DNA of 63,678 bases, filler included. It is 11 parts of 11 records of this genome, joined end to end, with 100 filler letters (N's around TTAATTAATTAA, not from the genome) between each part and the next. Parts side by side here need not be neighbours in the genome. Positions count along the whole stretch, not along the records: positions 6,155 to 17,724 come from SRR15195285_1642; 10 more parts are not named here. One strand, given 5' to 3'. The notes under the pieces were generated by a model. It was not told the origin of the DNA. It saw nothing but the letters and a program-made list of their open reading frames with translations, and did not search any database. The translations under genes were made by a program, and so were the position numbers. The first letter of the stretch is position 1. Each line of letters starts with the position of its first letter. Shown here piece after piece: positions 177-45,089 of this stretch.

Positions 177-3100
177 ATGGCGGGGCGGGCGTTGCTCGTG
201 CTGGCGCTGTTCGGGGCGGTGGGCGTGCAAGGTTCGTGTTTGTTTATCGTTTTGTTTTGGGGCGCTGCGTTCTGGTGTTCGCCGTGCTATCCGTGTTCCG
301 CCATGATGGTACTGACGATGACCCGCTGCTTCGGTCCGTGTGTGTCTCCGCAGCACAAGACGCAGCCCCCTGTGACGCGAACGACCCGGACGTCAGCGGC
401 AGCAACATGGTTGACATTGCAGCTGATGGTTGCGACGGCACTGCTGCAGGAGAAACATGCACGCACACGTGCAGTGATGGGTACGGGGGTGGTTCTGTGA
501 CGTGTCAGGCTTCGGACAATCAGTACGCTGTCGTTGCGTGCACGGAACAATGCCAGCCGGGCAGGTATGCAGACACAGCTACCTCGGGCAGCTGCCAGTT
601 ATGCGGCGTGGGGCACTACAGTGACGAAGCCGACTCGCCGGTCTGCAAGGCCTGCCCGCTCGGGACGCACGCTAACGCACTCGGACAGGACGATGTGACC
701 GACTGCCGTGACTGTAGGGAAGGGAAGTACCAGGATACTGCAGGCCAGGCTCTTTGCAAGGACTGCCCTGCAGGCAGATATACAGACGCACAAAGAGCCA
801 GCGACCCCATCACCGACTGCACCGGGTGTGCCGCCGGGCGGTACTCCGTTGCAGTGGGCGCGACAAGTGCTGCAGTATGTGAATCGTGCGATGCTGGGAA
901 GTACGCACAGGACCTAGGCGCCATGGAGTGCACCGACTGCCCACTGGGTCAGTACGGCCTGTCTGAGGGCAGTGACGAGCTGGCAGATTGTGATGAGTGC
1001 GACGCCGGGAAGTATCTCGGTACTACTGGTAGCACGACTGCCGCGGACTGCACCGAGTGTATTCCAGGGACGTTCTCGCTGGCCGGCATGGGACAGTGCA
1101 TCGACTGCCCGCGTGGAACGTACGTGGGCGTCTCTGCGGCCACCAACTGTACTGAGTGTGCCGTAGGGCGTTTTCTCGATCAGACTGCAGGCCTCTCCAG
1201 CAGCAATTGCACGAACTGTCCACCAGGCACGCAGCTCAACACCACTGGAGGCAGCAGCCAGACCAACTGTTCGGCGTGCCAGGTTGGACAGTTCGCCGGA
1301 GGTGGCATGGCGCTCTGCGACCTCTGCTCCGCGGGGAGATTCCTGAACTATAGAGGAGCATCCTCCGCAGCCAACTGTTCGGCATGCGCTCCTGGCCAGG
1401 CCTCCTCAAGCGGTGCTGAAGAATGCGGCTCGTGCTCGGTGGGCAAGTATTTGCCCGGTGGAGCAGAGGGGAGCGCGTGCATCGACTGTCTGGCAGGAAC
1501 GTATGCCGACACGCCCGGTAGTAGTGCCCCTGAAGATTGCAAATTATGCCCAGCGGGCCAGTATAATGCGGTACCGGGTAGCAGTGCATGTCTGGACTGC
1601 ACCCCCGGTCGGTTCTTGCCGACTGCGGGAGCGGATGCGCTGGAAGACTGCATCAGCTGCCCTCCTGGTAGAGCTGCCAGTAGTGCTGGCAATATCGACG
1701 CAGCTAGTTGCGGCGTGTGCTCACCTGGGGAATATGCTGTTTCTGCAGGTAACGCTGCATGCAGCGCTTGCCCCGCGGGCATGTACAACGAGATGCTCGG
1801 CACAGACGAGTGCGATAGTTGTGCACCAGGCAGATATGTCAGCTCAACTGGCAGCGTCTCTGAGCTCAACTGCAGTAGTCACACAGTCAGTTTGTGCACG
1901 GTAGGCCAAGGCTGGTCTGGATCGACGTCGGATGATGACGGAAATTGCTCCATCTGCACAGCTGGGCAGTACTCAGAATTTACTGAAGCATCCCCATGCG
2001 AGCCATGTCCACTTGGCAAGTACGGCATTGCTGTAGGGAGTACTGGTCTCTGGGATTGCATCGATTGCCCGGTAGGCCGGTTTGGGAACAGCAGCAGAAC
2101 CGAATGCCATGATTGCCCAGCGGGTACATATACTGACACTGTCGGCACCGAGACGACCGCGGATTGCATCGCTTGTCCAGCAGGGAGATGGTCAGCTTCG
2201 ACAGGAACTGCGTCTGCTCTCGAGTGCATGGAATGCGAGCGCGGCCGATGGTCCGAGGACAGTGGCCAAACGCAGCCCTGTACCAATTATCATCAGATCG
2301 GAACCATAATCACCCTCAGTGATAGCACAGCCTGCAATCTTACAAGCTCTACTGATTTTGGTGTAACTCCAGGCTCATGCGCAATCGTTGCCTCTACCAT
2401 CGATTCGTGTACTTACATCGAGGGGGATTACTCCGCTACTAGCATTTCCGGCACCCCGCTTGATACTGTTGTCACAGCCGACAGCTGTACGTCGTACGCA
2501 TTCGCGTCCTGTGACGCAGGGCTGGAATGGTCAGGTTCTACAGATGAGGATAATGGACTGTGCAGTCAATGCCCCGTTGGTCAGTACAAGGAAAGCTTTG
2601 GCAAAGCATCGTGCATCTTCTGTCCGCTGAACATGGATACTGACGCTGTGGGTGCAGCGTCTGTGAATTTGTGCAAGTGCACTGGGAACTACACGACAGT
2701 GGGGAATGAGTCTGTGGGGTTCCGTTGTGCGACATGTTTGCACGATGCCATGTGTACTTTCAATCCCCCCACAGTGTCCTTTCGCAGCCTTCCGCAGAAC
2801 GGGACGAAAGTGAGTCCATCGGGGCGGTTAGTGATCTCCTCAGATGTGCGGACCTCGTATCCAAACGAACGGGTTTCACTGGCTTGGCAGGTTTGGCAAC
2901 AAGAGAGCACTAGCCGAAGCGTCCCACTGGATCTGGCCATGCCCGGAGTTCTTCAGTCCCTTGCGACTGAGACTAATTTGGTCATAAGTGGGAGCTTTCT
3001 CGTTCCCTCGGCTTCATATCGTGTCATCTTGACGGCAACGGGTCTCAACGGTTCAAGCTCCGCGGAGACGTTCTTTGACGTCAATAGCCCACCATCAGGT

Positions 3101-6054
3101 GGCGCTGTCTCGGCCTCACCTGTGGCAGGTACATCGTTGGAAACCAGCTTTACCATCCTTGGCACAGACTGGCAGGACGAAGACCTTCCGCTGGCTTATC
3201 AGTACATGTGTGAACTGAAATCTGGTGCGTTTGCACTGACTGGCATTGTGCGCCGCGCAAACATTACAACAACGCTACCCCCTGGACCCCTAGAAGCTGA
3301 TATTCCAGGACGTTACGAGGTTGCACTGCAAGTGATTGATTCTTATGCTGCCAAAGCAGTAGCTCGGGTGAGAGTAACGGTGCTACCCTACGAAACTCTC
3401 GATTGGGCCAGTGATACGGAGCAAAAGATTCGAGGTGTTGTTGACAGTGACTTGCCGATGTTGATACGCAGCATCGGAATTCGTTTGAATCAAATCGATT
3501 TGACGTTTGAGAACGCGTCAGACCCAGCTATCATTGCCTTGCGAGAGGGGATCACAAAAGCAAGGGAGGTGAGCATTGTAACTCTGATGAAAGGCAGCGC
3601 GCGGCTGCCAGAAGTGGATGAGACTCTTGCCGGAACTTTTTTCGGCGCCTTTCGAGACCTTTCACAAGAAGCCGATATGATGACACAGAATGCAACAACT
3701 TCGGCGTTTCAGACCATTCAATTGCTTGTTGATGAACAGGCTTTGCTCTCCGACGAGTCAGCAGCTGCTGTCACCACAGCTGTGAGCAACCTACTTGCTA
3801 GTGGTACTCAGGGAGCTAATGCATATGCAAACCAAGCTAGCACGTTGGCACTGCAAGTCATGGATTCTGTTAATCAACGAATCGCAGCACGACTGGTCCC
3901 TGGTGAGCAGGAGGTCGCTGTGTCTACAGCACAGCTAGAGCTGACGGTACAGAAGCTGAAAAGCTCCAGTCTACGGGGGAAGACTCTCGCAGGGGGTCGA
4001 GTCACTCTCCCAGCTTCTCTGTTATCCGCAACTGAAGATGACCTGAGTGTGGCGGCTGTGCTGTGGCAACAGAATCCTTTCGCGTTTACCCCTCGCGATG
4101 GTGCAAGTCGGCGCACACTTGCCGATGCTCCTGCTGCTCGTTCTGATCTGCACCTCTCAACTCGTGTTCTGAGCCTTGATGTACTAGATTCGAACGGCCC
4201 CGTGGTGCTTGACGACCTAGATTCGCCATTCATCGTCAACCTTCCCATAGATGGCGCTCCTTCCAATGAATGGAACATGAAACCTGTGAACTGTACTGCG
4301 GTTCCGTGCGCCGACCAGTACGATGCTGCGCATGAACCTGGCCAATGCCATGAACTGACCACTAGAGGTGGATACACCTGCGCGGCCGATTTCTGCTCCG
4401 ACTGTCCCCACAAAGAATATTGTGAAAAGACATGCAGTTCAGGCTGCCATGAGATCGACATCTGTGACGCAGACTACTCAGTGCTGGATGCCCCCGGTGT
4501 GCTGCACGACGATGAGCCTAGAGGCGGTGTTGACTGCACATCAGTCGCAGAGGCACACATCGAGCACTGTGGACGCCCATCAAACAAAGGGACATTCGAG
4601 CTCCATGGTAATACTGGCTATGGAGATAATCTTGACTGTGGGAAGGTGATTCGAGCACCAGTCGGCCACCGGATCATATTGAAGTTCACGCACCTCGTAC
4701 TTGAGAATGTACTCGGTTGCCCCGATGGAGGCTGTGATGTCGTCACAGTGTATGATGGTGAGAACGCGGATGCACCTCGCCTCGCAACATTTTCTGGCAC
4801 TGAGCTTCCGAGCCAAGAACTTTACAGTGGCGGCCAGTCTCTGTACGTGCGCTTCACGACGGATACCGGGAACCACGGACTGAGTGTAGTGCAGGAGTCT
4901 CGCGATCCAGGATTCTTCGTCGACTACAACTTCTCACCGTTGTTGCAATGTAACCTGCCGCCAGAACCTTATTGTGCCCACTGGGTTCATGCCGACGGCA
5001 ACGACTGGCGCCAAAGTGGAAGGGTCGTTAGCCAAACGGATGAACACGTTCGCTGCGAGTTCGATAGTCTGGCAGACTTTGGCGGACTGCTCGGGCCACC
5101 CCTTGAGCGGGTCGGATTGCACCATCGAGATGATGGTATTTCCTACGCGCCTATGCCTGGCAGCATGCTCGGCACCGTCTGCTCAATAATTCTACTGATG
5201 GTGGTGCTCGGAGCGACAGGCGCCGGCATGCTTAGACATGCCCGTATCTTACGTCAAATCAAAGCCAAGGGCAAGCAACATCTGATTGGTGAGCTCAAGT
5301 TTAAAACGTATGGTAAGGCAAGGTTTCAGCTCGAGACTCTGCGTACTCGCCTTCTGCGCCGGGCGCAAGCAATAATTGACGCGGGTTTCTGGGGCGAACA
5401 CAAGTACAGCAGCATGTTGAAGGCAGCGGTAAAACGTTGGGCAGCCCGGGCAAAACCGCGTAGACCAATGATGCGCCTACAGACGCGGTGCTTCGGCCGG
5501 CAGCTATGCTGTCCGTTGGAAGGAGATCCGTTTGCTGGACCGCAAGCCATCGCAGTTGCCGCTACATCTGTGTTATGTAGTATGGCTGTGTCACTACTTC
5601 TGTTCTTCAAGACTGCATCCGACATGGTCGATATGTGTCGAATCTCCGACGGCACAAGTGAGGACGCTTCAGAGTTTTGCTGGACCTACCTGTGTGGGCA
5701 GAGCCCATGTGAAGAATGTGCAGCATGCGGCGGCACAGATAAAGAATGGAGTGACAAGCAAGGGCCATGGGCAGCTTGGCGTGAACCAGTGTGTGACAAG
5801 GCATGCTACTTTCAGCCGGACATCATATGGTCAGTCTTCGTGACAATATGGTGTCTGATTCCTCTTTGCTCCGTCTTGAACTGGGCGTTCATTTGGCTTA
5901 ACGCCCCGCTCGAAAGGCTGATAATGAAAGACGATGAACCAGATCCGCAGCAGGTGGATTCAGAGGTTGAAGATCCTTACAACAGTGGAACTGAAGAACC
6001 TTTGATTCCAATCGCGATCGAAGCGCCGGAGCCGGAGCCGGAGCCAGAGCCAGA
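177..6054 (+). CDS. Polycystin-1-like surface receptor: signal peptide, many Cys-rich CxxC..G.Y (GCC2/GCC3, ephrin-receptor-like) repeats, REJ-like region, GAIN/GPS with embedded CUB domain, TM segments; 3' end truncated at contig end
   Basis: Exon 1 (177-231) encodes MAGRALLVLALFGAVGVQ. Phase-1 intron 232-353 (GTTCGT...ACTGAC...CCGCAG) joins it in frame to the 236..6106 ORF. REJ-like motif NSPPSGG..ASPVAGTSLETSFTI..WQDEDLPLAYQY. CUB motifs YGDNLDC..IRAPVGHRIILKF..CDVVTVYDG..LYVRFTTD. GPS-like YCAHW..W..G..VRCEFDSLADFG, then TM segments. Confidence 0.8.
6025..6054 (+). repeat. Hexanucleotide repeat encoding (PE)n at the contig end
   Basis: CCGGAG/CCAGAG tandem units immediately before the N linker. 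Confidence 0.85.
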
Positions 6055-6154
6055 NNNNNNNNNNNNNNNNNNNNNNNNNNNNNNNNNNNNNNNNNNNNTT
6101 AATTAATTAANNNNNNNNNNNNNNNNNNNNNNNNNNNNNNNNNNNNNNNNNNNN
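6055..6154. other. Artificial contig linker (N44-TTAATTAATTAA-N44)
   Basis: 100-nt N spacer with stops in all six frames. Identical linkers at 17725-17824, 25150-25249, 31204-31303, 34783-34882, 38428-38527, 43490-43589, 47168-47267, 51751-51850 and 58379-58478. Confidence 0.99.
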
Positions 6155-6447
6155 ATCTCCTTTCGCTGCAGATCCCCTCTGCCCTCCCCCCCACCCCCCC
6201 ACTCCCCCACACACAGCTCGCAATGGACAGCTGGAAGACACCGAGGGTAGTCACATCTCTCCCGATCGGAGGCCGCGGGTTGGGCTGCAGCTGACTGCGG
6301 AGGGCTGCGCCAGGGCTTGGGCTGGCGGGCGCGGGCATGTTTGAATGTTTTCGAGGCTGGGTTGGCTGAGCGGCGTATGCTGAGTGTGTTGTGTGCTCTC
6401 TCGCTGTGCGTGTGCGTTCGTGTGTGCGATGCTGCTTGGCCTCGCAG

Positions 6448-9400
6448 GGATTGGCGCGCCGGATGTGAACCACGTGAATGTGCGCATGGAGTCCGACAAG
6501 TTCATCACGGTGCGCGAGGCCGCGGGGAACCTGTCGATCATCGACATGGCGTCGCCCGCCGCGGCGCCGGAGCGCAAGCCGATGAAGGCGGAGTCTGTGA
6601 TCATGAACCCGGCGGCCAAAGTGCTGGCGCTGAGCGCGAAGATGGGCACGAAGACGACACTGCAGATCTTCAACATGGAGATGAAGAGCAAGATGAAGGC
6701 GCACGAGTTCCCGGACGAGGTGTCGCTGTGGAAATGGGTAGACAGCAAGACAATTGGCATCGTGACCCTGAACTCAGTGTACCACTGGTCGATGGAGGGG
6801 GACAGCGCGCCCACCAAGATGTTCGACAAGCACGCGTCGATGGCGGGCTGCCAGATCCTGAACTACAAGGCCTCGCCGGACATGAAGTGGCTGGTGCTGA
6901 ACGGCATCAAGCAGGAGGCAGGGCAGATCGTCGGCGCCATGCAGCTGTACTCGACTGACAAGCGAATCAGCCAGCCGATGGCGGGGTTCGCGGCAGACTT
7001 CGCCTCTGTCACCGTCGCGGGCGCGCCAGACCCGCTCAGTCTGTTCTGCTTCTGCGCCAAGAGCCCGGCCGGCACGGGGCAGGTTCAGATCGTGAAGATT
7101 GGAGGCTCGGCTCCCTTTGAAAAGAAGAACGTCGATGTGGGCGCGTTCGAAGCTAACGACTTCCCCGTGGCGATGCAAGCCAGCGACAAGTACGACCTGC
7201 TCTATCTCATCACGAAGGGCGGTATGTTCTTGCTTTTTGACACGGAGACTGGTGCTATGATCTACCAGAACCGGATCTCGGACGCGTCCAGCGCTGTCTT
7301 CTGCACCACGGCGAATACTAAAAATGGCGGGATTATCGCTGTCAACCGCGCTGGACAGGTGCTTTCTGTGACCATCGACGAAGCCAATCTTGTGCCGCAC
7401 ATCATGGGCCAGCTGCAAAACTCAGAGATGGCGCTGCGTTTGGCAAACAAGCACGACCTGCCCGGTGCGGACCAGATGATGACGCAGCAGTTTGAGCAGC
7501 TGTTCGGCCAGGGCCAGTACGCTGCCTGCGGTAACCTGTGCGCCGGGTGCTCGCGTCTTCGCACGCCGCAGACACTGCAGCGCTTCCACTCCGCCGCCCC
7601 GCAGGCAGGCCAACCCCCGCCAATTCTCGCTTACCTGCAATCCATTCTGCAAAAGACCAAGCTGAACGCTCCAGAGACGGTGGAGCTCGGGCGGCAGGTC
7701 CTGGCGAAGCAGCAGGTGCAGCTGGTGCAGCAGTGGCTGGATCAGGATAAGCTGGAGTGCTCCGAAGAGTTCGGTGACATGATCAAGACCGCAAACCCTC
7801 AGCTGTCCCTGAAGGTTTATCTGCTGGCCAAGTGTCACGACAAGGTCATCATGGGCCTGGTTGAGACTGGCGCGCAAGAGAAGGTGATGGCCTACTGCCA
7901 AAAGGTCGAATACACTCCAAACTGGAGCCAAGTGATCGGTGCATGCATCCGCGTCAATCCAGCTGCAGCACAGCTGCTGGCCTCGACTGTGGTCGGCGCC
8001 GGCGTCGAGTTGGACACCATGCAGCTTTTCGAGTCATTCATTGCTATGCAGATGTTGGAGCAAGCGACTGCGTTTGCCCTGGATGCGCTCAAAGGTGAGA
8101 GCACCGAAGCGAATGGCGCATTGCAGACACGCGTGCTTGAATGCAACCTGATGATGGGTCAGCCCCAGGTTGCAGATGCCATCCTTGGCCAGGAGATCTT
8201 CCAGCACTATGACAAAGGCCGCATCGCGGGGCTGTGCGAGCAGCAGGGTCTTGTCGAACGTGCGCTCGCGCACTACACCGAGCCAGCTGACATCAAGCGC
8301 GCCGTCGTACACACCCACCGTCTACGAGACCCGAACTTCCTGATCAATTGGTTCGGAACGCTGGCGCCAGAGCTCGCGCTTGAGTGCCTCGAGGAGATGC
8401 TCCGCTCGAACATGCAACAGAACGCCACAATTGTCGTCAACATCGCTACTAAGTACACTGAACCGATCGGCGTAGACGCGATGGTTGGATTGTTCGAAAA
8501 GACTAAGTGTATTGACGGCCTCTTCTTTTACCTCGGGTCAGTCATTGCCAGCATCACCGACCCAGAAATGACTTTCAAGTATATCGAGGCTGCGACCAAG
8601 TGCTCGCAGTTCAAGGAGGTCGAACGTGTTACACGCGAAAACTCTAACTACGATGCAGAAAAGGTGAAAGAATTTCTGAAAGACGCCAAGCTCCAAGACC
8701 CACGGCCGCTGATCAACGTCTGCGACAAGCACGGATACGTTGACGAACTAGTCAAGTACTTTGTCTCCAACAACCAGATGAAGTTTGTTGAGCAGTACGC
8801 ACTCAAGGTCAACCCTCAGAACATCCCTGTTGTCGCGGGCACCTTGATGGACCTTGACTCCAATGAGGATTTTATCAAGAACCTCGTTCTCACTGCTGGC
8901 ACATACTGCCCGGCCGCGGAGCTGGTCGAAGAGATCGGCAAGCGTGGCAGGCTGAAGATCATCTTACCCTGGCTAGAGGCACGCATCAACGAAGGTTCTA
9001 CTGAGCCAGCCATCCACAATGCCATCGCCAAGACGTACATTGACGCCAACCAAAACCCGGAACATTTCCTTCGCTCCAACCCGTATTATGACTCAGCGGA
9101 GGTGGGCAAGTACTGCGAAAAGCGTGACCCGAACCTTTGCGTGATTGCTTTCGAACGTGGGCAGTGCGACGACGAGCTAATCGACGTCACCAACCGGTAC
9201 TCGCTCTTCAAGCAACAGGCGAAATACCTCGTTGAACGAAGTGACGCTGCGCTGTGGGCCAGAGTCCTTGTTGAAGAGAACGAGCACCGGCGCCAGCTTA
9301 TCGACCAGGTCGTCAGCACCGGTCTGCCAAACTGCGAAGATGCCGAAAAGGTCAGTCTGACTGTCCGGGCATTCATGGACGGAGAGCTGCACAAAGAGCT

Positions 9401-11480
9401 CATCGAGCTGCTGGACAAGATTGTGCTTGGAGCTGGCTCGCGGTTCGGTCATGAGAAGAGCTTGCAGAATCTGCTCATCATGACAGCGATCAAGGCAGAT
9501 CAAACCCGCGTGATGGAATACGTCAACCGCCTGGAGAACTTTGATGCCGCCGAGGTGGCGCAGATTGCCGTGGAGAATGGCCTCTTTGAAGAGGCCTTCA
9601 CATTGTACAAGAATGTCAATGAGAACGAAAATGCCATTGCGGTGCTCATTGGAAATACCAACCTGAACGATCTTGCGCGGGGTCTCGAGTTTGCCCAGCG
9701 CTGTGATGAAGCACCCGTATGGGCACTACTTGGCAACGCTCAGCTCGATGCTGGCATGCTTGCTGATGCCGTAGATGCCTTCTGCAAAGCCGGCGACGCG
9801 AGCACTTACATGGCAGTCATCAACGCAGCAACGGCGCAGAACGAGTTCGAGCCCTTGGTTACGTACCTGAAGATGGCTCGCACTAAGACAAAGGAACAAT
9901 CCATTGACACAGAGCTAGTGTGGGCATACTGCAAGACTGAACGGCTCGTAGATTTGGAGGAGTTCGTCGCCAGCCCGAATGTGGCGAACATTGGCGACCT
10001 AGGCGAACGGGCCTTCGATGCTGGCATGTTCGAGCCGGCAAAGCTGCTCTTCACGTCCATCTCGAATTATGCTCGGCTCTCCACCACTCTGTCCATGTTG
10101 AAGGACTTCTCTGCTGCTGTAGATGCGGCGCGAAAAGCAAACTCCGCGCGGACGTGGCGTGAGGTATGCCAGGCGTGCGTTGCTTCGGAGGAGTTTCGGC
10201 TTGCGCAAGTTTGCGGCCTGCACATCATCGTGCAACCAGACGAGCTTGAGGACCTGATTGAACACTACGAGAAGCTCGGCCACATCGAAGAGCTGAGTGC
10301 TCTACTAGAGGCGGGGCTAGGGCTCGAGCGGGCTCACATGGGTATCTTTACAGAGCTTGGTGCCATCTATGCCAAGTACAACGAGGAGCGGCTGTTCGAA
10401 CACATCAAGATCTTCTGGGCACGCATCAACATTCCGAAGTTGATCCGCGTATGTGAGATCTGCGAGCACTGGGAAGAGCAGTGCTTCTTGTACATAAAGT
10501 ACGATGAATATGACAACGCAGCTGCTGTGATGATGGGCCATGTCGATGCGTGGGCCCACCAACAGTTCATGGATGCGATTGTCAAGGTGGCCAATATGGA
10601 GAACCAGTACAAGGCAATCACCTTCTACATCGAGTACCAGCCGTCGCTGGTGAACGAGCTGCTGTCCGTGCTTACCAGCAAGGTGGAGCATGGTCGTGTT
10701 GTCTCACAGGTACAGAAGCTGGATCAGCTGGCGCTGATCAAGCCTTACCTGGTCCAGGTGCAGCAGTTTAATGTTACAGCCGTCAACGATGCTCTCAACG
10801 GGTTGCTCATCGAGGAAGAGGCGTGGGAGGAACTGCGCGAGTCCATCGACAACTTCGACAACTTTGACCAGATCGGCCTCGCGAACCAGTTGTTCAAACA
10901 CGAGTGCCTTGAGTTCCGGCGGATCTCCTCGTACCTGTACAAGAAAAACGGGCGCTACAAGGAGAGCATTGAGCTTTCGAAGCAGGACAAGCTGTACCGT
11001 GACGCGATGGACACGGCAGCGCAGTCTCGGGAGGCCGCGCTCGTAGATGACCTCATTTCGTTCTTTGTCACAGAGGGCGAGAAGGAGTGCTTCGCAGCAT
11101 GCCTGTTCACGTGCTACGATCTAATTAAACCGGATGTAGTGCTCGAGATGGCGTGGCGCCAGGGCTTAACGGACTTCGCTATGCCATACATCATCCAGTT
11201 TGTGGGCGAGTACAGCACTCGGCTGGACGCTCTAGAGGCAGCTGAGGCTGGAAGGCAAGGCAGCCAGGAGAATCAGCAGATGGACGTGCCTTCGATGGAA
11301 ACACCGATGGCATTGCCTCAGTATGCTGGGCAGGGTGCGATGGGTTACCAAGATCCGAACATGATGGCTGCACAGCAGGCGCAACAGGACCGGATGATGC
11401 AACAGCAGGGGATGATGCAGCCTGGAATGTCACCAGGGATGTCACCAGGGATGGCGCAGGGGGGGATGTACATGCAATGA
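6448..11480 (+). CDS. CLTC: Clathrin heavy chain (main exon; short 5' exon(s) lie unresolved in 6155-6447)
   Basis: Hallmark sequences MESDKFITVRE, IMNPAAKVLAL, TLQIFNME, SEEFGDM, DPRPLINVCDKHG, LGLERAHMGIFTELG, CLFTCYDLIKPDVVLEMAW and DFAMPYIIQ over about 1680 aa. Splice acceptor CCTCGCAG ends at 6447. Confidence 0.98.
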
Positions 11481-11571
11481 CGAACTTCCATGTGCTTTTG
11501 ATTTGCAAAGTAGTTCCTTCGTCAATGAGACCACGACAATACGCGCCCGCCCGCGACCGGCAGCAGCGTCG

Positions 11572-12448
11572 CTATTTCGCCTCGATCGGATTGTGCTTCA
11601 AGTCCAGCAGCATCCCCCGCAGCCGCGTGGTATCCTTCGCCTTCGGCGCATCCTTCGCCTGCGCCTTCGGCTTCATGTCGCAATACTCTACGATTTTGGC
11701 CCACGGATTTGACTCGGTCGCAAAGAACTCCTTCGCTGCGGCATCCGCGGCCAGGTTGGCCTTCCGCTTCGCTTCGATCGTCGTCGCCCGCTGCGCCGTC
11801 ATCTCCTCCTTGGCAGCCGCTCCCGCCTTCTTCATCTCCTCCGCCTTGTTCTCCGCGGCGGCTTTTCGCGCTGCCCTGTTCTCCGTCTGTCGGTCCAGGA
11901 AAGCCTGGAGCTTCGCCGGCACCGCCGGCTCGAACGCGACGGGCGCGGCTGCAACGGGCGCCGCAGTCTCTACCGGCGACGTGTCGAACCCGCCGAGATC
12001 AGCGCTCGCGTCGGCCGCCGGTGGAGCCGGAGCCGGCGCCGCGTCGAAACCGAAGTCATCCGCCGCGGCCGGCGCCGCAGGCGCTGGCGCCGCGTCAAAC
12101 CCAAAGTCGTCTAGGGCCGCCGCTTCCCCGCCGGCCTCTGCAGCTGCAACACATGTCCACACACATCCGCACACAGGTGAGGTCATCCCTAAGCCGCGAG
12201 GTGCTCGACAGGCTCGCGTTCCGCATCACACCCCGCGCTCCGCTCACACCCTGCCTCTCGCTGCCCTTCCCCTACGAAGCGCAGGTTGCCCCAGCCCCAG
12301 TCCGAGCACACCCTGCCGAAAGGACCTCCTCAAAGCACCCCGAAAGCCACCAGCCCCTCAAAAGCCGAGACCGTCTCCAAGGCAAGGTGCGTCGAGAAGC
12401 GCTCGTCCAGCCCTCCCTCCCGCCCCCGCGACCATCCGACCCACCCAT
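11572..12448 (-). CDS. CLC: Clathrin light chain (exons 12448-12445 ATGG and 12143-11572)
   Basis: Acidic, Pro/Ala-rich N-terminus, central helical region and C-terminal NPWAKIVEYCDMKPK..KDTTRLRGMLLDLK, matching the light-chain tail W.RV..LCDF.PK..KD.SRMR.VL..LK. A phase-1 intron 12144-12444 (GTGGGT...TTGCAG) gives MAAEAGG. Confidence 0.88.
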
Positions 12449-12843
12449 CGATCGATCCCTCCCCGTCCATACTGCAATGCACCACCCAGGTCGCGGCGCT
12501 CTGGGGTGGGTTTGGCAGGGCTGTAGGGTGTGGTCGGCGGAGTCGGGGCGACGATGACGAGCCCCGCCATCCCCCAGGCACGTGCACCTCTCACCCTCGC
12601 CGCGCCCTCCGGCGAGTATGCGTGCGCCGACCTGCTGCGCCGCCGATGCGGAGGCAACGCGTGCAGCGGCGAGCAACGCTCCGCCCACTCCACCTTCTGC
12701 CCGTCCCTCTGCCCCCCTCTCTCCCTCCGCCCGCCCCCCTCCCTCCCCATCCCTCTGCGTGTCTGTGCGCGCGTGTGCGAGTGAGGTCCCCTGCGCCAGC
12801 TGGAGAGCGTCCCAAGCCGCCCCCCCCCCCCGCCCCCCCCGTT

Positions 12844-14073
12844 ATGGGCGTGCGTGGTGTCGTGTGCGTGCTGGCGGTGGGGTTGTATACCTGGCTCAGG
12901 GGCGGGCATGGGGGCGTCAGCAGCCGGCGGCTCGTCGAAGAAGTCCATCCCGCAGCGCTTGCGGCTAATGAGACAATGATCAAGAGCCAACGAGCGGGAG
13001 TGCGTCCCAGTCCACCTTCGACCTTCGGGTACTATACTGCGATTTTGCCACAAACTCGTATATTTTGTCTGTACAACACAGCTTTTAATGCGAGTTTTCA
13101 AATGCAAATTCTGACTTGATTGGTGAAAATGTATGGGAGGCCCCCCTGGGGGTCTCGATCTCATCGAAGACCTCCAAGACAAACATGAGTCGAAGAGAGC
13201 CAACGAGGTGAGATGAGTGGATTGACGTGTGGCATCATGTGTCGGACGAGGAATCTCGAAACATTGCGAGTTAGTCAAAGAAACGGTGGGATTGTGAGGT
13301 CACTGTCATTCACAGTGGCTTTGTCCAAATTCGACTCTCACCCAAACGTCGGTGTGATGGGCCATGATTGTGCTGTCATAATTTCAATTTAGTCAAATTA
13401 ACGGTATGAAACTTCACTCATTCAAGATCGCAGTGTGTTTGTCCAAACTATCGATCACAAGCCAATCCGTCTGGCGATTTGGCCCCTTCTGATTTGGGAG
13501 GGAAATTTTTTTGGAAAGACGGCGGGTTGGATCCCGACTCGTACCGGAAAATCCTTGCATTATACAATCACGAATCAGGCTCCAGTGACGCAGTGAGTGC
13601 CTGATTCATGTCTTAGAAAATGCAGTGTTGTCAATGCGATTTCCAACTTAGGTCTCTGCTGATTCACCGATTGCGTCCAGGAGTCGAGAATTAATTCTGG
13701 CAGTAGTTCAGTGTAGGAATTCCAACCTGAGTACCGGTACAGTGAATCATGGGTTAGATGGTCATTCTGAGTTTGTTTTTGCAATGAACCCAGCCGCATT
13801 TTGTACATTGAAGACTCATGTGGACGAGTCGCAACTACTATCTAGTAGCATGTTTCCTCATGTGAAGTCGTCGTTGTACGGATGCGCGCAGGATTGATGT
13901 ACGATGACGGTGCAAGTTGATCCAAAGCAATACGATCAACACGGTGTAGAATGGTGGTGGGCAGCTCGGAGATGTCGTCAGCAAAACAGGGTCCTCTGGC
14001 TCCGCCACGTGGCGGTGACGCGGAGCCGGCAGTGGAGGAAGAAGCAGAACCTGAAACTACTATGCTTCAATGA
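12844..14073 (+). CDS. Probable multi-exon gene of unknown function with an N-terminal hydrophobic segment; exon structure unresolved
   Basis: ATG 12844 gives MGVRGVVCVLAVGLYTWL. Coding-like stretches (e.g. GKFFWKDGGLDPDSYRKILALYNH near 13500-13590) end at donor-like GTGAGT/GTGAGA. No family recognised. Confidence 0.35.
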
Positions 14074-14114
14074 GCTTTCCACACACGCAACCATGCCATG
14101 CAGTACTAGCAAAG

Positions 14115-17100
14115 TCAGACAAGCAGTGCATTGACTGGCCCATTGATCGTCGGCCCAGTCCACTGCTCGTGCAGGCACTTGGCCGTGTAGTCGGCGCAGC
14201 ACTGCGTCTGGAAGTTCCATCCCGCCGGCACACTCGGGGCGAGCCAGTCCGAGCTGCTGCAAGAGGTCTGCAGTGGGTTGCTCGATTTGCATGCTGTCCC
14301 TGCTGTGTTTGAGCAGCTGGAAGTTGCGAGGTCGGTGACAAGGCTGCCGTTTACGAGCGTCGCGGAACCGAGAATTTCCACGCCCGTCGCCGCATTGCTC
14401 TTGGTCGCCGCAACCTTGGCAACAGCGACATCTGCGCTGGCCGATGAGTTCTCGCTCGAGAGCATCGCGTACTGGTGGCCCACCTCGAGCTGTAGCGGAG
14501 TTGAAAGCGAACCGTACCAGAAGCCCAGCTCGTCCCCAGCTGTAGCTGTTGTTGACTCAACTGCGTCGCCAAGGCTGGCTGCTGCGCGTGACTGGTCGCG
14601 CAAGTGTGCTCCTGCAAGATCCACAAACGTGCTAGCGATCAGCTTCGTCTGGTTACTTTGTGCAGGCAGTGTCAGGCCTGTAATGTCGAGTACGGTAAGC
14701 ATATGCCTGTTGCTAGAGCCGGCAGTTTTCCACCTGCCAAGCTTGTGCACCGTCACTCCTGGCGCCGTGCAATTAATCACCATCCCAACGTCAAAACGGA
14801 AGCCACTGGAGCCTTTCACAGCCCCAACTGGTTGGAGCACACTGCACGGGACGCCGAACGGCGAAGCCAATACGTCTCCGAGAATCGACCCTGGTGCCAG
14901 TGTGGGTGGTGGGAGCTCGCTGATCTCCAGATTGTCAAAGAGCATCTCGTTGTACGAGCCGCCGAGAGCTACTGGGCCGTTGGTGGACATGGCATCGGTC
15001 CGCAGCTCGCTGAATAGAGAGTAGCCATCGAATGCGCCCGAGAGGCTCACACCGCTGAGGTTGAGCTGCAGAGAGTGCCATTCGCCTGCAGGAAATGCCC
15101 CGGTGGGTAGCGCGCCGTGAGCGAGGGCGAATGCGCCGTGGAGCGCTGCACCTCGGCTGCCACGCGGGTCTTGCTTTCCTATTTGGAGACCGGGCGCACC
15201 ACGCAAGGTCCAAGAGCCATTGGTGTAGGCCTCTATACAAAGCGCACGCTGCGCGGTGGCTTGGCTGAACCAGTTATAGTAGAATCGAGCGCAGACTGAT
15301 GCGTACACCGGTGCAATGCTCGCATGGCGAGCCTTGGTTGAGAGGCACGAACCGCCGGGGCTGATTAGCTGACCCGCCGAGTGCTTCCACTGCTGACCTT
15401 TTGCGTCGCAAGGCAGCAGCCGAGCAACTTGCTCATTTTCACCTACTCTCATCTCAGCCTCGGCCGACAGCTGAACGACATCTTCGACGCACAATTTGCT
15501 GGCTTCATGCGTCAGTGCTCCCATCGATGACAGCTTGAACAGCTGGCAGCGCAATGGTGTAGTTGCATCATCGCAGTCGAACATTCTTAGTTGAGAGTCG
15601 TCGCATCCGTACGCACCGAGACAGGTTTCATTCTTCTGCGAGATGCGGCACGCACCGCTGTTATCGCAGCTGTCAAAACTCCATTCGTCCAGCCACCCAT
15701 TCTGACAAGGCATCAGGGACGCAGCTGTGGGTGCCTTGTCCTCTGTCTCAATCGGGTTCTTCACTACCTGAAAGTCCACGGAGACGGAATAGTGGCTCCA
15801 GTTGTGACTGCCGATTACCGTAATCGGATCCTGATCGAAGATCCAGCCATTTCTGCACAGCAGGTTTTGACAGTGAGTTAGTAAAGTCGCGTGCGAGAAA
15901 ACAGATCAAGAAAAGTCGAGAGTAGAAACAAGTCGAGAGAAAAGTACGTACCCGATGGTTGGGTCTCGCGTGACGCGCTGCTTCATGGCGTTGCCGCCCT
16001 GGGCAGACGGTCCATTTCCTGAGCCAGCCTCGATTGAGAACGAACCGCTCTGATCGCACATGTAAGGTGCCAGGGTGTCGTTCGCCAAGCCTTCAAAGTC
16101 TTGTGAAAACGGCAGCGGAAAGGCAGTGCGCGGCGGCACCGCCCCGTGCGAGCCCTTTTTGGCGGTCGTGATGGTCGACAGGGTGTAGATCGAACCGGAT
16201 GCCAGCGAGAGCTGTACAGACTGCGAACCCTGGACCGCGGCAGTACCAGACGCCCCAGCTGTAGGCGGTGGCACGGTGATCTCTCCTGGGACGCGCTGAA
16301 AGTGGGAGGTAATATTCGAGTGCCAGAGCTGCAAGGAGCAGCCGCGAGGGCAGAACCCACCCTTCAGTGCGACGGTGACGTTCTGCATGGCTGTGATAGG
16401 TGGCGCGTCCTCGCCGGAGACCGGGCAGCTGGCTCTGCCACTAGTCTGCAGCAGCATGGTCCAGTCAGTGGCGTTCTTGTCCGAGACAAGAGTCAAGTAG
16501 CTCCCCCCGCCGGTTAGGTTCCCCCGCGCGTCACCATCCAGATACTTCCAGCCAATCTGGCTGAATTGCGTCCAGTGTGCGACAGTCCACAGTGCTGACT
16601 GCTGATTGGCCCCCTGTGGCTCGAGCGTGTAATGCCCGCTCCAGGGTTCAAACGCGAAAAAGATCCCCGAGCCCCCGTCAACGAAGTCCGGGTAGGGCGC
16701 CGACCAGATGAGCGCCCACGCGATGGCAGACGTCTGGTTCATTCCAACAAAGTCGCTCACCAGCGTCGTCGCCCAGTCGTTGGAATGATCCTCGCTTTGC
16801 CAGACCTTGATGGTGGGCTTGTGCTCAGCGAGTGCCTCGTAGCCGGGCTCTCCGAAGCTCGGGCAGCAGTAGTGGTAGCCCAGCACGTCGACGGCCTTGC
16901 GGAACTCCGCGTCGGTGGCCCAGGCAGAGAGTAGCGTGGGGTCCAGCCCACCGGCACCGCTCATTTGGGGTGCGTCGTCAAACGCCACGATGTGTGTGGC
17001 CGCGAAACCCGCAGAGTCCAGCGCCTTACGCAGCGACTTCGTATAGTTCGCGCCGCCCCACGTATCGCCGCGCCAGTGGGGCTCGTTCCACAGCCCAAGA

Positions 17101-17708
17101 TAGTCCACTATAGTCCCATTGGCAGCTATCTGAATGCACTCAAGCCACTTGACCAAGTACATGATCGAGTCGTTGGACCAGTAGTCACCGCCTCCGACCC
17201 ACGCCGGCATGCCCCACGGCAATCCATACGTCGCGATATCTGGGTTGCGCGCCTTTGCCTCACGGATGAGCCAGGCCGCGTTCCCCCGGAAACAGCCGTC
17301 GTGATCGTGACGGTGGTGCATGTGACTTGGGCCTGTGCCATCGGTGCTCTGAGTGTCTCCAGCTACCTCCACCTTAAGCATGTGCAGGCTTGCCCCGAAG
17401 GACGGCAAAAACAGGTAGTCGAGGATCTGGCTGCGCTGCGGCTCGCGGTAGTCCATGAGCAGCCGCGACGAGCCAGCATCCGCGAGGCCTCCATGGCCAT
17501 CGTATTGAAACACAGGGCTGATCTGCGCGAGGTCGACGTCAAGCACCTGCGGCAGTTGTGAGGCCGCCGCCGCCACGGCTGTCGCCAGAAGCACGGCCAC
17601 CGTCAACGCCACCTCTGCTTTGCTGGGATTACTGCCAAGCATACGCATGAAACTAAGCGTGTACACCCGGCGGGACGCGGCCTGCCCCCTCTGGACCAGC
17701 ATGCGCAC
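14115..17708 (-). CDS. GH59 galactocerebrosidase-like glycosidase with inserted ricin-B-like lectin and a C-terminal beta domain; intron 15853-15951
   Basis: GALC-type motifs SRLLMDYREPQRSQILDYLF.PSFGASLHMLKVE..GD.QSTDGT.PSHMH. Catalytic WNE and SED present. The intron (GTACGT...TACTAAC...GTGCAG) joins the two ORFs as TIG|NGWIFDQDPITVIGSHNW. Ricin-like CD..QQW..GQLISPGGSCL. Exact start Met uncertain. Confidence 0.9.
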
Positions 17709-17824
17709 CGGTGACGGGGGGCGCNNNNNNNNNNNNNNNNNNNNNNNNNNNNNNNNNNNNNNNNNNNNTTAATTAATTAANNNNNNNNNNNNNNNNNNNN
17801 NNNNNNNNNNNNNNNNNNNNNNNN

Positions 17825-17852
17825 GTCAAACGTCAAACGTCAAACGTCAAAC
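17825..17852. repeat. (GTCAAAC)4 minisatellite at contig edge, probably intronic
   Basis: Four direct heptamer copies; on the minus strand they follow a GTACGT donor-like site. Confidence 0.8.
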
Positions 17853-20800
17853 GTACCACGGAAGGGCATGGCACGAGCGTAAACCGCAAAGAAGAAGAAT
17901 GAGATGATGCCAGCTGCAAAAGCCTGTTCTACAGAGCCTTGGCTGAAGAAGATGATGGCCCCGGCAAGTAGCATCTTCCGCACCAGTTCGATACACTCGA
18001 AGTAGTAAAACTCTGGTTTGTAGTCACGAGTGAGGAAAGAATATTTCTCCGAGCCCCCCTGCCACCATTTCTTCTTCTTGCGCTTTGCACGACCAGCACG
18101 CTTTTGCAGGGCAGATACTACCGCTGGTGGTAGCCCAGTCGAATCGATACCGCTATCTTTCTCGTCGTCCATCTTGTCGGTTGCGTCATTGGTCGAACCA
18201 AGCAGCAGAGCCATCCCAGATGCTTCAGTCGTCTCGTTCTTGAGCGTCTGACGATTAGCGTAGAGCAGAACAAAGAAAATCGCGGGCACTCCAACCGGAA
18301 AAGCGAACAGCATCACAAAAGAAAAATAGGAGAAGAGAATGTAATCGTCACTGTGACAGTCTACCTCGTAGTAATCTTGATGATAGCTCTCTCCCTCGTC
18401 CAAGTCACGGCATGCAAAGGCTCGGAACGAAGTCTTACTGAGGTACGGGTACAGCATGAAAATCGCAAAGAACGATCGGTTGAGCGCCGACTGATAGGCT
18501 GTGCCTTCCCTCTTCGCCTGTCTGCCAGACTGGGTGCAGAGACACAGCGTTGGTGGGAGGAACAGTAGTACGATGATCCCCGGCAGCAGCACCGCAGCAA
18601 GGGCTGTATTGACATACAGGCTCGTGTTGTAAAAGCAGTCGACTCGTATCAACTCGATAATGTCGAGGAAAATGATTTTGACGTAGCTCAGCATATGAGT
18701 AAACGCCGGCGGATATGTAATTGACAGCGTAAAAGGGAACGAGCCAACGACTTGAAAGAGCGAGACGGCGATCTTGAATTTCGTCTCCAGGCCAACGTGA
18801 CGCATCTCCTCACCCTCAGGCAGGCCAGCTGCTTGCATTTCGAGATGTGGCCTGAGGATCAGCCGCCACAGCAGAATCATTGGCACTGCAATGGCTGCGG
18901 CTACCGCCCCGTACCAGCTTTTACCGCCTCCTTGCTCGCTGCACTGGATGCAGCCTTCCGTTGTCCTATGCCATTGGGGAGCACAGATCGCACAGAGGAC
19001 GCCTGTCCATACAAAATTGAAGTCAGTTTTCTGTGTCTGAATAAGCACTGCGTTTGTACAAAATTGAAAAGTAATGGCAATTACCTGTGTATCCCTCCCT
19101 ACAACGCATCGAGAGCGAGCTGTTGGCTGGATCTTCGCCGAGGCAGGCTCCCTCATACGGGCACTTGAACAAGTTTCTTTCCGGTATAGCTATACTGTCC
19201 GATGCTGACTGCTCTTGCAGGCTGCCGAGCGTGCTTGCACTGGCGTTCGAAGAAACGCCAATGGTGTCCAGGTACCGCTCTCTGCCTTTCTTGCTGAGAG
19301 ACCATCCGTCTAGTGCAAATGGTATCCCGGCACTACACTCGGCGCAGCTCAGTCCGGGGCCGGGGAGATCCGAACATGTCATGCAGGCTCTTCCTTGCTT
19401 CGCATCGTGGATAGACAATTGCACGGAACTGTAGTCCGTCACAAAGCAGGACAGCAGGACATGTGACGAATCGAACGAGCCGATCGGAAATTGCGCCGAT
19501 CCACTTGGGCAGACGCATGCATCGCTGGCGACTGTAGGCACCATGGTTGGATCGCTGCAGCGAGCGCACGCCATCCCACTCCCATCATTGAACGTCCCCG
19601 CCTCACAAGCAACACATGCAGTGCGAGCATCGTTCGGTGCCTTGCCCGCTTCACATAAGATGCAAGCGCCACCGTCGGTGCTTACCCACGTCTGTTGGTC
19701 TCCCATCGCGAGTCGTTGACATAGTTCACACCCGTCTTGAGCAGCGTTGGGCTCCGAGCCCAAGGGACATCGCACGCAGCCACCATCCGCTGACCCGTAG
19801 TAACTGAGTGGGCAGACCATACTGAGACTGGCAAAGACGCTCTGCCCGGGTGCAAACCCTGATATTGCGTCATTGGAGACCTGCTCTTCAAGGCTAAGAA
19901 GTACGTCCGAAACAATTTTGTCCGCATCTTGCAGCATCACTGACCGAATCGCGAACTCGACTTCGATGGCCGGTGCTGGATGCACGATGAGTTCACCTAT
20001 TGGCGACCCAGCCACCGACACGTTCGGCGACAGCGCCGTGCGAAGAGCGTCTGCACCAACCATCGCATCGTCGGGGGGGCTGGGCGCGATGGTAAACGTC
20101 ACCACGATGCTTCCTGCTGCTATATGTGCGACCTGCACGCGGTCTTGCTGAATACCAAGCAGCGCAGCAATGTCACTGCCGAAGTCCTGAGCAAAGGCCG
20201 CTCGAGCAGACACGCTCGAGACGTCTTCGACATCGATAGACAAGCCAACGTCGGCCGTGCGGTTTGGCATTGCAGATCTGCCAACGACTTCGATGGCTTT
20301 GATCGGAATGTCCATTGCAGCCGCCATCGATATGACAATATCATCAGAATTTGCATCTCCGAGGACCTGCATAGTCAGCACTGCATCAGGCACAGCTGTG
20401 TCGGGCGAGTCGACTCTACAGGAAGTATCGTCATTTTCGGTGCTATTATCGCACACTCCACAGAGGTCCAATGCACTGAACCCGCCCCACACGCCTGCGC
20501 AGTCCCGAGCACAAGGTAGGTCAGTGCACTGACCACACTCATCGACCTCGCCAGGACCATTTGGCACACCGTAGCAGTCAGCGCAAGACGTGCTGTCACC
20601 AGCACACACGAGACATTCGTCGATTTCGGCGCTGCCGCCCCATACTCCAACACAGTCTAATCTGCAGTCATTCGTTGCGTTTGTGTCGCAGATGCCACAC
20701 GAATCGACGTTTGACACACCATTAGCCAAGCCGGCACAGTCTGCACATGTAGCTCCATCGTTCGTTGAGTTGGTATCACACACTGAGCAAGCATCCAATT

Positions 20801-43342: not shown

Positions 43343-43462
43343 CTCCGCGCTCCTCCCGCTCCTCACCGGGGGCCCTCGTCGCCCCTGCACCCCTTCTCCT
43401 GCCGCAGCAGCCTCCTCCCCAAGGGCAGCCTCCTGTAGCTCCTCCCCAAGGGGAGCCTCGCA

Positions 43463-43489
43463 AGCAGCAGCAGCAGCAGCAGCAGCAGC
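43463..43489. repeat. (CAG)n microsatellite at contig end
   Basis: About nine CAG units before the linker. Other contig-edge microsatellites lie at 34889-34908 (CAC), 51721-51750 (CAGA/CAGG) and 58353-58377 (GCT). Confidence 0.9.
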
Positions 43490-44149: not shown

Positions 44150-45089
44150 ATGGCGGAGGCACCGACGGCGGGGCGGCGGGCGGGGCGGCGGGCGGGTAAC
44201 CCGGTGGAAGGTGGTGCGGCGTCAGGTTGGGGTGAGCCTGTGGAGAGGGCGGCGGCGCCGACGGGCGGCGAGAATGCGGAGAGTCCGCCTAGCCCGGACG
44301 GGCCGCAGCATGGGTAAAGTCTGACCGCCTGCCTGCCTGCCTGCGCGCTTGCCTGTGCGGCTGCGTGTGTGTGCCTGTTTGTCGGCGTATGTGTCTGTCC
44401 GTCCGTCCGTCCGCTGGTCTGCCGCCTGCACGTGTGTATGTCGGGGAGCCTGTATGTGTTCCTGTGGATTTCTGTGTGCCTGGAAGGCGTCGTTTGTTTC
44501 CGTCCGCCTGAAGATCCGCATGCCTGTCTGTCTGCCAGCCTGCCTGTTTGCCTGCCCGTCTGTCCGATCGTCCATCTGGCTATGTGGCTGTTCAGACTGT
44601 GTGGCTGGCTCTGATAATGTGCTCACGGCCCGCGCTGTTGTTCACGTGCGCAGGCGGCGCAAGGGTGGGGCGACGTCGGGCTGGGGCGAGCCAGCGGATG
44701 AAGCGGGCTCGTCGGAGCCGGCACCGATGCCGGAGCCCATCGCGCCGCCGCGGAGAGACAGCGACGACGACGACGGCGTGGCGGCATTTATCCCTGATCT
44801 GGAGGAGGAGGAGCAAGAGGAGCAGATCCGAGAGGTGTCGGAAGCGCCGGCGGTGCAGCACCAGATGCAGTCGATCGACGAGCTGGACAACGGCGCAGAT
44901 GCTGCGGGTGCTCTGCACATGATCGACCACGGCATCGACCTGTCGCTGCTGACTGGGTGCCTCTCGGCGCGTGGACACGTCGAGGAGGAGGACGCCAGCT
45001 GGGACTTCAACGGTCTGCTGTCCGACGTGAGTCAGGAGCTGCAGAAAGAGGTAGACAAGCAAGAGGCTGAGGAGGAGGAGGAGGGCTAG
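44150..45089 (+). CDS. IFT43: Intraflagellar transport protein 43; intron 44314-44653
   Basis: N-terminal GRRAG and SGWGE motifs. C-terminal IPDLEEE..VSEAP..QSIDELD..GIDLSLLT.CL....VEEED..WDF..L..DVSQEL matches IFT43. A phase-2 intron GTAAAG...GCGCAG joins the exons. Confidence 0.88.

Follow-up and report, generated by a model that had tools for sequence, protein, structure and literature searches.

Clathrin heavy and light chains are a textbook pair. To our knowledge, the genes encoding them (CHC and CLC) are not neighbours in human, budding yeast, Arabidopsis or fly, whereas in the marine picozoan genome described here they were confirmed to lie tail to tail, with stop codons 91 nt apart. 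In the histone pairs H2A-H2B and H3-H4, neighbouring genes likewise encode partners required in equal quantity, an arrangement conserved across lineages, but the histone genes are head to head and the bidirectional promoter they have in common is a clear coupling mechanism; the clathrin genes have separate promoters. Teichmann and Veitia reportedly dealt in 2004 with the linkage of genes whose products join the same complex, and with the idea of dosage balance. PMC6762216 argues for a tendency of such genes to be linked, in the interest of dosage balance or co-fluctuation, and states that the median distance between linked genes is no different from random expectation. The clathrin locus resembles the systems in this literature, its two products being non-homologous parts of a stable complex whose genes are neighbours. 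The published pattern, however, is a statistical tendency towards chromosomal linkage, whereas the picozoan case is a single pair, as close together as two genes can be, seen at the level of the genes.

The window, by which we mean the whole stretch of DNA analysed (63,678 nt, filler included), consists of 11 contigs joined end to end by linkers (44 N + TTAATTAATTAA + 44 N). The original prediction placed both genes within one contig. This was correct for the pair, which is found inside a single piece of 11,570 nt (6155-17724) with a linker on each side, the nearest linkers being 5.3 kb and 6.2 kb off, but the window itself is a set of 11 joined pieces. The CHC/CLC junction was bridged by a Logan contig of 4,209 nt from the metagenome run X1, which covers window positions 8521-12729 with 5 differing letters, and also by a 376-nt contig from the RNA library X7 (11322-11697); X1 and X7 come from one study. 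Because these contigs were assembled independently, the junction is not chimeric, and the concern about misassembly raised with the original prediction was thereby answered.

CHC is encoded on the plus strand by one long exon (6448-11480) identified from its open reading frame, its Pfam domains and its identity to relatives. The exon ends with a TGA stop codon at 11478-11480 and is preceded by a splice acceptor AG at 6446-6447, inside an open frame spanning 6384-11480. Relatives begin with a first exon of about 16 codons ('MALPIKLEE..K'); comparison of N-termini and a six-frame check showed that this exon is absent from the contig, having been lost at its edge. Pfam searches returned eight PF00637 Clathrin repeats (E 4.8e-184) and the further domains PF01394, PF09268 and PF13838, corresponding to propeller, linker and H-link. 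A clathrin heavy chain is expected to combine an N-terminal propeller, a linker and about 7-8 CHCR repeats in roughly 1,700 residues, and the predicted protein agrees with this make-up. The same heavy-chain domains are found in animal, fungal and plant clathrin (PF00637, PF01086; 6sct, 6wcj). The search found 1,455 homologues, the best named ones being clathrin heavy chains, and identity to animal CHCs was 51-53%. The source organism is a picozoan, as its CHC shares 76-85% identity with proteins listed in EukProt under the name Picozoa sp. (83-85% with CHCs from metagenomes, 76% with Picozoa sp. COSAG05 of EukProt).

CLC is encoded on the minus strand and ends with a TAG stop codon at 11572-11574, which leaves a spacer of exactly 91 nt (11481-11571) between the two stop codons, as first read from the letters. 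The light-chain identity had been proposed from the C-terminus; it was borne out by the Pfam domain and by profile matches to light chains of solved structure. Exon 2 (11572-12143, within an open frame at 11572-12186) scored 34.9 bits with PF01086 Clathrin_lg_ch, above the gathering cut-off of 22, at E 2e-8 and over profile positions 105-215 of 222, and precomputed PF01086 assignments were present in 8/8 CLC relatives. A profile built from 8 picozoan CLCs matched two solved chains, 6wcj_B (CLC-B, E 5.2e-5) and 6sct_D (E 1.6e-4), which were the only matches at E up to 1, with chain residues 87-225 aligned. The likeness to the solved light chains thus extends over the central and C-terminal regions, including the conserved C-terminal block; exon 2 encodes three acidic DDFGFD-type motifs, a central helical region and a conserved C-terminal region. 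Unlike the known light chains, the picozoan protein carries three DDFGFD-type motifs, and it leaves PF01086 positions 1-104, the profile's N-terminal half, unmatched. As to the acidic N-terminal 'consensus sequence' region of animal light chains, a DDFGF-type acidic motif near the picozoan N-terminus aligns with one that opens the CLC-B chain, in a match (domain 1, -1.8 bits) that is non-significant.

The CLC gene (11572-12948) is probably made of two exons, as predicted from its splice sites. The predicted intron (12144-12890, 747 nt, GT..AG, phase 1) contains a poly-G low-complexity run and separates exon 2 from a predicted exon 1 at 12891-12948 (start codon, 19 codons and 1 base, with an MDFFDE start), for which support is moderate. 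Conservation among the relatives' light chains begins exactly at the predicted acceptor, the spliced model keeps an open frame of 209 codons, and the local alignment with the P0126 N-terminus extends into exon 1, in low-complexity sequence. No joint across the predicted intron was reported in 4 runs, where the uncovered part does not count as evidence: in RNA run X14, exon 2 and CHC were covered, while positions 12180-13099, which hold the predicted intron and exon 1, were without a contig.

Linkage in relatives was inferred from protein records on contigs of exactly equal size and from the same source. Comparison of 39 CHC with 46 CLC contig sizes gave five exact matches (5812, 7647, 7695, 7838 and 8378 nt), and in all five the two proteins came from the same source. 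They represent four other lineages, whose CHCs are 80-92% identical, and a near-identical second assembly (7,647 nt). The 5,812-nt contig is from JGI, those of 7,695, 7,838 and 8,378 nt from ENA, and the 7,647-nt contig from NCBI. None of 20,000 jittered controls reached five matches (maximum 3), and 5/7 CLC contigs of at least 5 kb matched a CHC contig. On four of the five shared contigs, the room left after both open reading frames was only 514 to 2,210 nt, and there is therefore little or no space for an intervening gene; on the 5,812-nt contig, CHC enters from the edge, so that CLC must follow the CHC stop within 514 nt. By this indirect comparison of records, CHC and CLC probably share contigs in several related lineages, down to approximately 80% CHC and 70% CLC identity. 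Recurrence of the linkage is supported by this indirect evidence. Eight longer CHC contigs (10-28 kb, including EukProt COSAG02 NODE_223 and COSAG05 NODE_84) had no visible CLC partner; the others are ENA contigs of 20,997, 22,481, 19,393 and 10,440 nt and JGI/Logan contigs of 20,920 and 23,685 nt, and COSAG02-like, COSAG05-like and P0007-like lineages are represented among the eight.

Among 8 near clusters and 3 shorter matches, no light chain of EukProt COSAG02, 04 or 05 was found, a result that is uninformative either way. Alignment of CHC to metagenome, genome and viral contig collections and of CLC to metagenome and genome contig collections returned no related loci. Beyond CLC lies a GH59 gene, and for the 15 members listed from its cluster of 25, no contig size was in common with CHC or CLC; the shared CHC/CLC contigs are too short to reach the GH59 gene anyway, which makes this comparison uninformative. 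Literature searches returned nothing on CHC/CLC synteny, on adjacent CHC and CLC genes, or on CLC gene order in protists. The picozoan gene pair is real, probably persistent and apparently unreported.

The spacer is uneven in composition, with 41% GC in the 49 nt nearest CHC and 74% in the 42 nt nearest CLC. It contains no AATAAA-type poly(A) hexamer, no repeat of at least 30 nt and no inverted repeat, its predicted fold is nothing unusual (z-score 0.87), and neither an Rfam family nor a tRNA was detected in the spacer and its flank. The X14 contigs end at 11455 on the CHC side and at 11531 on the CLC side, contig ends being different from transcript ends. Overlap of the two 3' UTRs within the 91 nt is possible.

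Several explanations for the pair were weighed. We give next to no credence to an assembly artefact, in which a chimeric contig or the concatenation of contigs joined the two clathrin genes. Single-cell amplified genomes are chimera-prone and the window is itself a concatenation of 11 contigs, but such an artefact is already contradicted by the position of both genes within one piece, kilobases away from either linker, by the metagenome contig that crosses the junction with few differing letters, and by the second assembly, where both proteins are on the 7,647-nt contig, as well as by the linkage repeated in four relatives. The original prediction held chance adjacency to be very unlikely and proposed a selected two-gene cluster. 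For one named pair, the probability of immediate adjacency is indeed approximately 2/N, or 1-2 in 10,000 (N assumed to be 10,000-20,000 genes). This is, however, the wrong number for a find made post hoc across many genomes, with a large choice of partner pairs; the argument ignored the look-elsewhere effect, and a scan of that kind is expected to return some such neighbours. We consider it fairly probable that the pair goes back to one ordinary rearrangement, in the ancestor of several picozoan lineages, followed by passive retention; both the neutral origin and the cause of persistence are what we infer. The adjacency would have arisen once and would persist mainly since nearly any breakpoint in so short a spacer would damage a 3' end, the 91 nt leaving almost no room for a harmless one. 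Coupling of subunit expression, if any, would be a by-product of the common chromatin neighbourhood and of abutting or slightly overlapping 3' ends. A dedicated regulatory device is not expected, because the genes are convergent and have separate promoters, their 5' ends being approximately 6.5 kb apart, and the lack of a structure signal, repeat or inverted repeat in the spacer also argues against one.

Selection for adjacency, by which the 1:1 subunits would co-fluctuate through a common chromatin domain and triskelion dosage balance would be improved, appears rather unlikely to us. It would fit the apparent recurrence of the linkage in four other lineages, and the neighbouring GH59 gene lacked such co-occurrence, as would be expected if the pair were retained specifically (among the 15 members listed of 25, and with shared contigs too short to reach it). 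The CHC identity of 80-92% may also mean deep divergence, because CHC evolves very slowly, as seen from its identity to animal CHCs; retention would then exceed typical microsynteny. The argument for co-fluctuation of linked subunits in PMC6762216 points the same way. Against selection, the convergent orientation excludes a shared regulatory element such as a bidirectional promoter or an operon-like transcript, the eight long CHC contigs are without a visible CLC partner, and the short spacer accounts for persistence by itself. A stronger form, in which the convergent pair would be maintained by selection throughout Picozoa and overlapping 3' ends, with chromatin state or convergent transcription, would fix the ratio of triskelion subunits, seems decidedly doubtful. 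We regard as very unlikely an antisense-coupled pair, with overlapping mRNA 3' ends and regulation of one or both genes by convergent transcription or dsRNA. Only 91 nt separate the stops, an X14 RNA-library contig extends 41 nt beyond the CLC stop, and one X7 RNA-library contig covers the whole spacer. But in X7 the predicted CLC intron is covered as well, in unspliced form, by contigs at 11737-12298 and 12429-12729, so that the library may contain DNA or pre-mRNA; a contig that spans two genes demonstrates no single transcript, and the spacer is without fold or motif signal. Interference would, moreover, tend to uncouple rather than couple subunits needed 1:1. Logan contig depths cannot rank or correlate the expression of the genes.

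If selection maintained the pair, nature would have supplied a clean test of whether eukaryotes place the genes of obligate partners side by side for matched amounts, and the convergent orientation would rule out the usual shared-promoter explanation; with overlapping 3' ends as well, the two genes would form a eukaryotic module serving a core trafficking complex without a shared promoter. Under neutral retention, which we judge more likely, the pair would be useful as a marker of synteny in Picozoa, a poorly known group, and would recall that two famous genes can be expected to turn up as striking neighbours occasionally across many scanned genomes.

A spurious antisense open reading frame (11477-12526) overlaps the CLC gene and is longer than the CLC open reading frame. 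This exact frame was not in the protein collection, and it could displace CLC in ORF-based gene calling. With the antisense overlap and the intron in CLC, and with CHC also split by an intron, ORF-based annotations of these single-cell genomes give wrong protein ends.

Ten linkers, each made of 44 N, then TTAATTAATTAA, then a further 44 N, with the central 12 bases forming a stop in all six frames, divide the window into 11 pieces, the shortest 3.5 kb and the longest 11.6 kb long (sites 6055-6154, plus 17725, 25150, 31204, 34783, 38428, 43490, 47168, 51751 and 58379). The window is therefore a string of separate contigs, and gene neighbourhood across the linker sites is meaningless. The clathrin heavy chain gene (CHC), the clathrin light chain gene (CLC) and their spacer all lie within the single piece 6155-17724. 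The original prediction described the two genes as convergent neighbours, and its geometry was exact: the CHC stop (TGA, 11478-11480) and the CLC stop (TAG, 11572-11574) are separated by 91 nt (11481-11571). Nineteen public runs contain the clathrin stretch wholly or partly, and contigs of four runs were compared against it. The Logan contig from the marine metagenome X1 (4,209 nt) matches 8521-12729 except at 5 letters. Assembled independently from a near-identical organism, it runs through the final 3 kb of CHC and the spacer into CLC, most of which it covers. A 376-nt contig from the RNA library X7 covers 11322-11697; since X1 and X7 belong to the same study, together they make up a single independent source. 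The second is an NCBI record with a CHC (P0159) differing at one residue in 1,683 and a CLC (P0121) identical to that of the window, the longest contig being 7,647 nt for each. A chimeric join is very unlikely, as the X1 and X7 contigs cross the junction and the NCBI record repeats both proteins. We have very little doubt that the tail-to-tail adjacency was correctly observed.

The CHC open frame (6384..11480, + strand, 1,698 codons) encodes the full clathrin heavy-chain domain set in Pfam: eight Clathrin repeats (PF00637, E 4.8e-184), propeller repeats, the heavy-chain linker and H-link. The closest CHCs are metagenome proteins with 83-85% identity; the 90% clusters of two of these include the EukProt entries Picozoa sp. 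COSAG02 and COSAG04. The CHC of Picozoa sp. COSAG05 is a 76% match, and animal CHCs come next at 51-53%, indicating that the window comes from a picozoan. The paper describing these Picozoa co-assemblies, which measure 32-109 Mbp, does not mention clathrin (0 occurrences; PMC8599508). The heavy-chain exon in the window starts at an acceptor at 6446-6447. In more distant relatives the first ~16 residues (MALPIKLEE...K) are joined directly to the rest of the protein; they do not appear when 6155-6520 is translated in any of its three + strand frames, which places the first exon beyond the contig edge. Relatives at 91-92% identity, like the window, have no contiguous MALPIKLEE...K. CHC intron positions vary among picozoan lineages (window 6155-6447; CHC residues about 1285-1319): the window shares the intron after the first ~16 codons with its 91-92% relatives, whereas 75-85% relatives lack it, and in the 92% lineage CHC is also interrupted between residues 1285 and 1319, unlike the window CHC.

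The light-chain identity proposed originally was confirmed by Pfam, as the CLC open frame (11572..12186, - strand) scored 34.9 bits against PF01086, above the cut-off of 22 (E 2e-8), and aligned to positions 105-215 of the 222 in the model. A search with eight picozoan CLCs combined into a profile found 6wcj_B (E 5.2e-5) and 6sct_D (E 1.6e-4), both clathrin light chains and the only solved-chain matches at E up to 1; the alignment extends across the central region and the conserved block at the C-terminus. Both clathrin proteins are ordinary members of their families. Judging from the sequence, CLC probably consists of two exons. In this model, exon 1 runs from a start codon at 12948 (first residues MDFFDE) to a GT at 12890; the acceptor AG at 12144-12145 would restore the frame in phase 1, giving a spliced frame of 209 codons with no stop. 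Precisely from this acceptor onwards the CLC relatives are conserved, the ORF-derived N-termini upstream being unrelated Cys/Val-rich read-through. No RNA contig in the four runs examined was spliced across the predicted intron. The N-terminal region (11975-12115, - strand) contains three acidic DDFGFD / DLGGFD motifs with Ala/Pro-rich linkers between them, kept in 80-92% relatives; the 70% lineage has DDFGM variants instead. A DDFGF motif likewise opens the solved CLC-B chain, and these acidic sequences may be docking motifs. An antisense ORF (11477-12526, + strand, 349 codons) with no Pfam family covers all of CLC exon 2 and exceeds its length; when these GC-rich contigs are annotated by ORF, it could displace the real CLC.

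The sizes and sources of the longest contigs for 39 CHC and 46 CLC proteins, taken from incomplete protein listings, were compared to look for linkage in relatives. Among those listed, five CHC/CLC pairs had exactly equal contig sizes and matching sources: 5,812 nt (JGI; CHC P0151, 91% identity to the window, with CLC P0189), 8,378 nt (ENA; P0156, 92%, with P0165), 7,695 nt (ENA; P0001, 85%, with P0169), 7,838 nt (ENA; P0143, 80%, with P0126) and the 7,647-nt NCBI contig (P0159, 99.9%, with P0121). Five of the seven CLC contigs of at least 5 kb matched a CHC contig, and 20,000 jittered-size controls never reached five matches (maximum three). The equal-sized contigs are almost certainly the same contigs. 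Subtracting both ORFs left 514 to 2,210 nt in the four contigs computed (those of 5,812, 7,647, 7,695 and 7,838 nt). In the 5,812-nt contig, CHC enters from the contig edge, the protein starting at window residue 127; with 514 nt spare, the CLC ORF must lie at most 514 nt downstream of the CHC stop, which is also its side in the window. Each of the four non-self lineages belongs to a different CLC cluster at 90% identity, so the linkage is common to several distinct picozoans. Scans of three contig collections recovered no loci of relatives; the contig sizes, as indirect evidence, make it highly probable that the linkage is shared by several other picozoan lineages.

Eight longer CHC contigs had no CLC protein of equal contig size or node name among the matches listed: four from ENA (20,997, 10,440, 22,481 and 19,393 nt), two from JGI/Logan (20,920 and 23,685 nt) and two from EukProt (COSAG02 NODE_223, 28,346 nt; COSAG05 NODE_84, 20,716 nt). 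Similarly, no EukProt CLC of COSAG02, 04 or 05 was among the listed matches of the near-length or shorter protein searches. The pair may not be universal in Picozoa. The missing partners could equally reflect gene-calling loss, because the longer antisense ORF overlaps the CLC ORF and because intron read-through can take CLC ORFs to lengths (252 and 275 residues, for example) outside the searched sizes. Partners may also have been overlooked, as the listings are incomplete.

The immediate adjacency of one pre-specified pair has a chance of about 2/N, or 1-2 in 10,000 if N is assumed to be 10,000-20,000. The original view that chance adjacency is very unlikely overlooks that the find was made post hoc in a scan of many genomes: if some thousand familiar obligate partner pairs are assumed to be equally eye-catching, each genome should hold 0.1-0.2 such adjacencies by chance and a large scan many, and the origin of this one needs no selection. 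Once formed, such a pair would decay slowly; with stops 91 nt apart, a break between the two genes would almost always damage a 3' end, leaving few harmless breakpoints. Persistence alone is thus weak evidence for selection, and we lean towards passive retention of the pair. Selection for subunit balance, as originally proposed, has a plausible mechanism in the published argument that linked genes co-fluctuate and that subunits of one complex tend toward linkage; the same source gives a median distance between linked genes no different from random expectation, so that closeness itself is a weak prediction of this idea (PMC6762216). A shared promoter is excluded by the convergent orientation, the 5' ends being about 6.5 kb apart. 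We consider maintenance by such selection rather unlikely.

Since 91 nt offers scant room for two 3' UTRs, abutting or slightly overlapping 3' ends are likely. A contig from the RNA library X14 extends 41 nt beyond the CLC stop, to 11531. The X7 contig crosses the entire spacer, although a contig is not equal to a transcript; X7 also covers the predicted CLC intron unspliced and may therefore contain DNA or pre-mRNA. The spacer has no AATAAA-type hexamer, no repeat and no unusual fold (z 0.87; 161/200 shuffles fold at least as well). Its GC content is 41% in the 49 nt nearest CHC versus 74% in the 42 nt nearest CLC.

The pair falls in a known, loosely defined class, neighbouring genes for partner subunits, and its tail-to-tail arrangement sets it apart from the textbook histone pairs. 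CHC and CLC are not known to be linked in human, yeast, Arabidopsis or fly. No published report of their adjacency was found in open-access full text. The pair is a minor curiosity, apparently unreported, that could serve as a synteny marker.

The only other neighbour is a GH59 galactocerebrosidase-like gene (14115-17708, - strand), on the strand of CLC and 1.2 kb upstream of its start. It comprises two ORFs, one with catalytic and central domains (15906-17708, E 1.7e-74) and one with a weak C-terminal lectin domain (14115-15779, 24.3 bits, below the cut-off of 27). It had no contig size in common with CHC or CLC among the 15 of 25 cluster members listed, and the shared CHC/CLC contigs are too short to reach it. 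In metagenome and RNA runs the summed contig depth was very high over three short stretches (12732-12915, 13098-13162 and 13761-13805), each with loose ends at either side; depth peaked at up to 627, 300 and 138 in the public run X2, and at 125 in X7. The first is a poly-G low-complexity run within the CLC intron, and the others are 45-65-nt elements also found in many other contigs; none had an Rfam match, a tRNA or a second copy within the window. The region 236-6054 (+ strand), which runs off the end of its contig, encodes a giant, cysteine-rich surface protein combining 15 Ephrin-receptor-like repeats with a REJ and a CUB domain; since its contig is not the one with the clathrin genes, it is no neighbour of theirs. 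Elsewhere, the window carries SRCR-domain ORFs (38528-43489) with internal direct repeats of 1.3-1.6 kb, and a fragment of the intraflagellar-transport gene IFT43 (44325-45086, E 4.2e-26).
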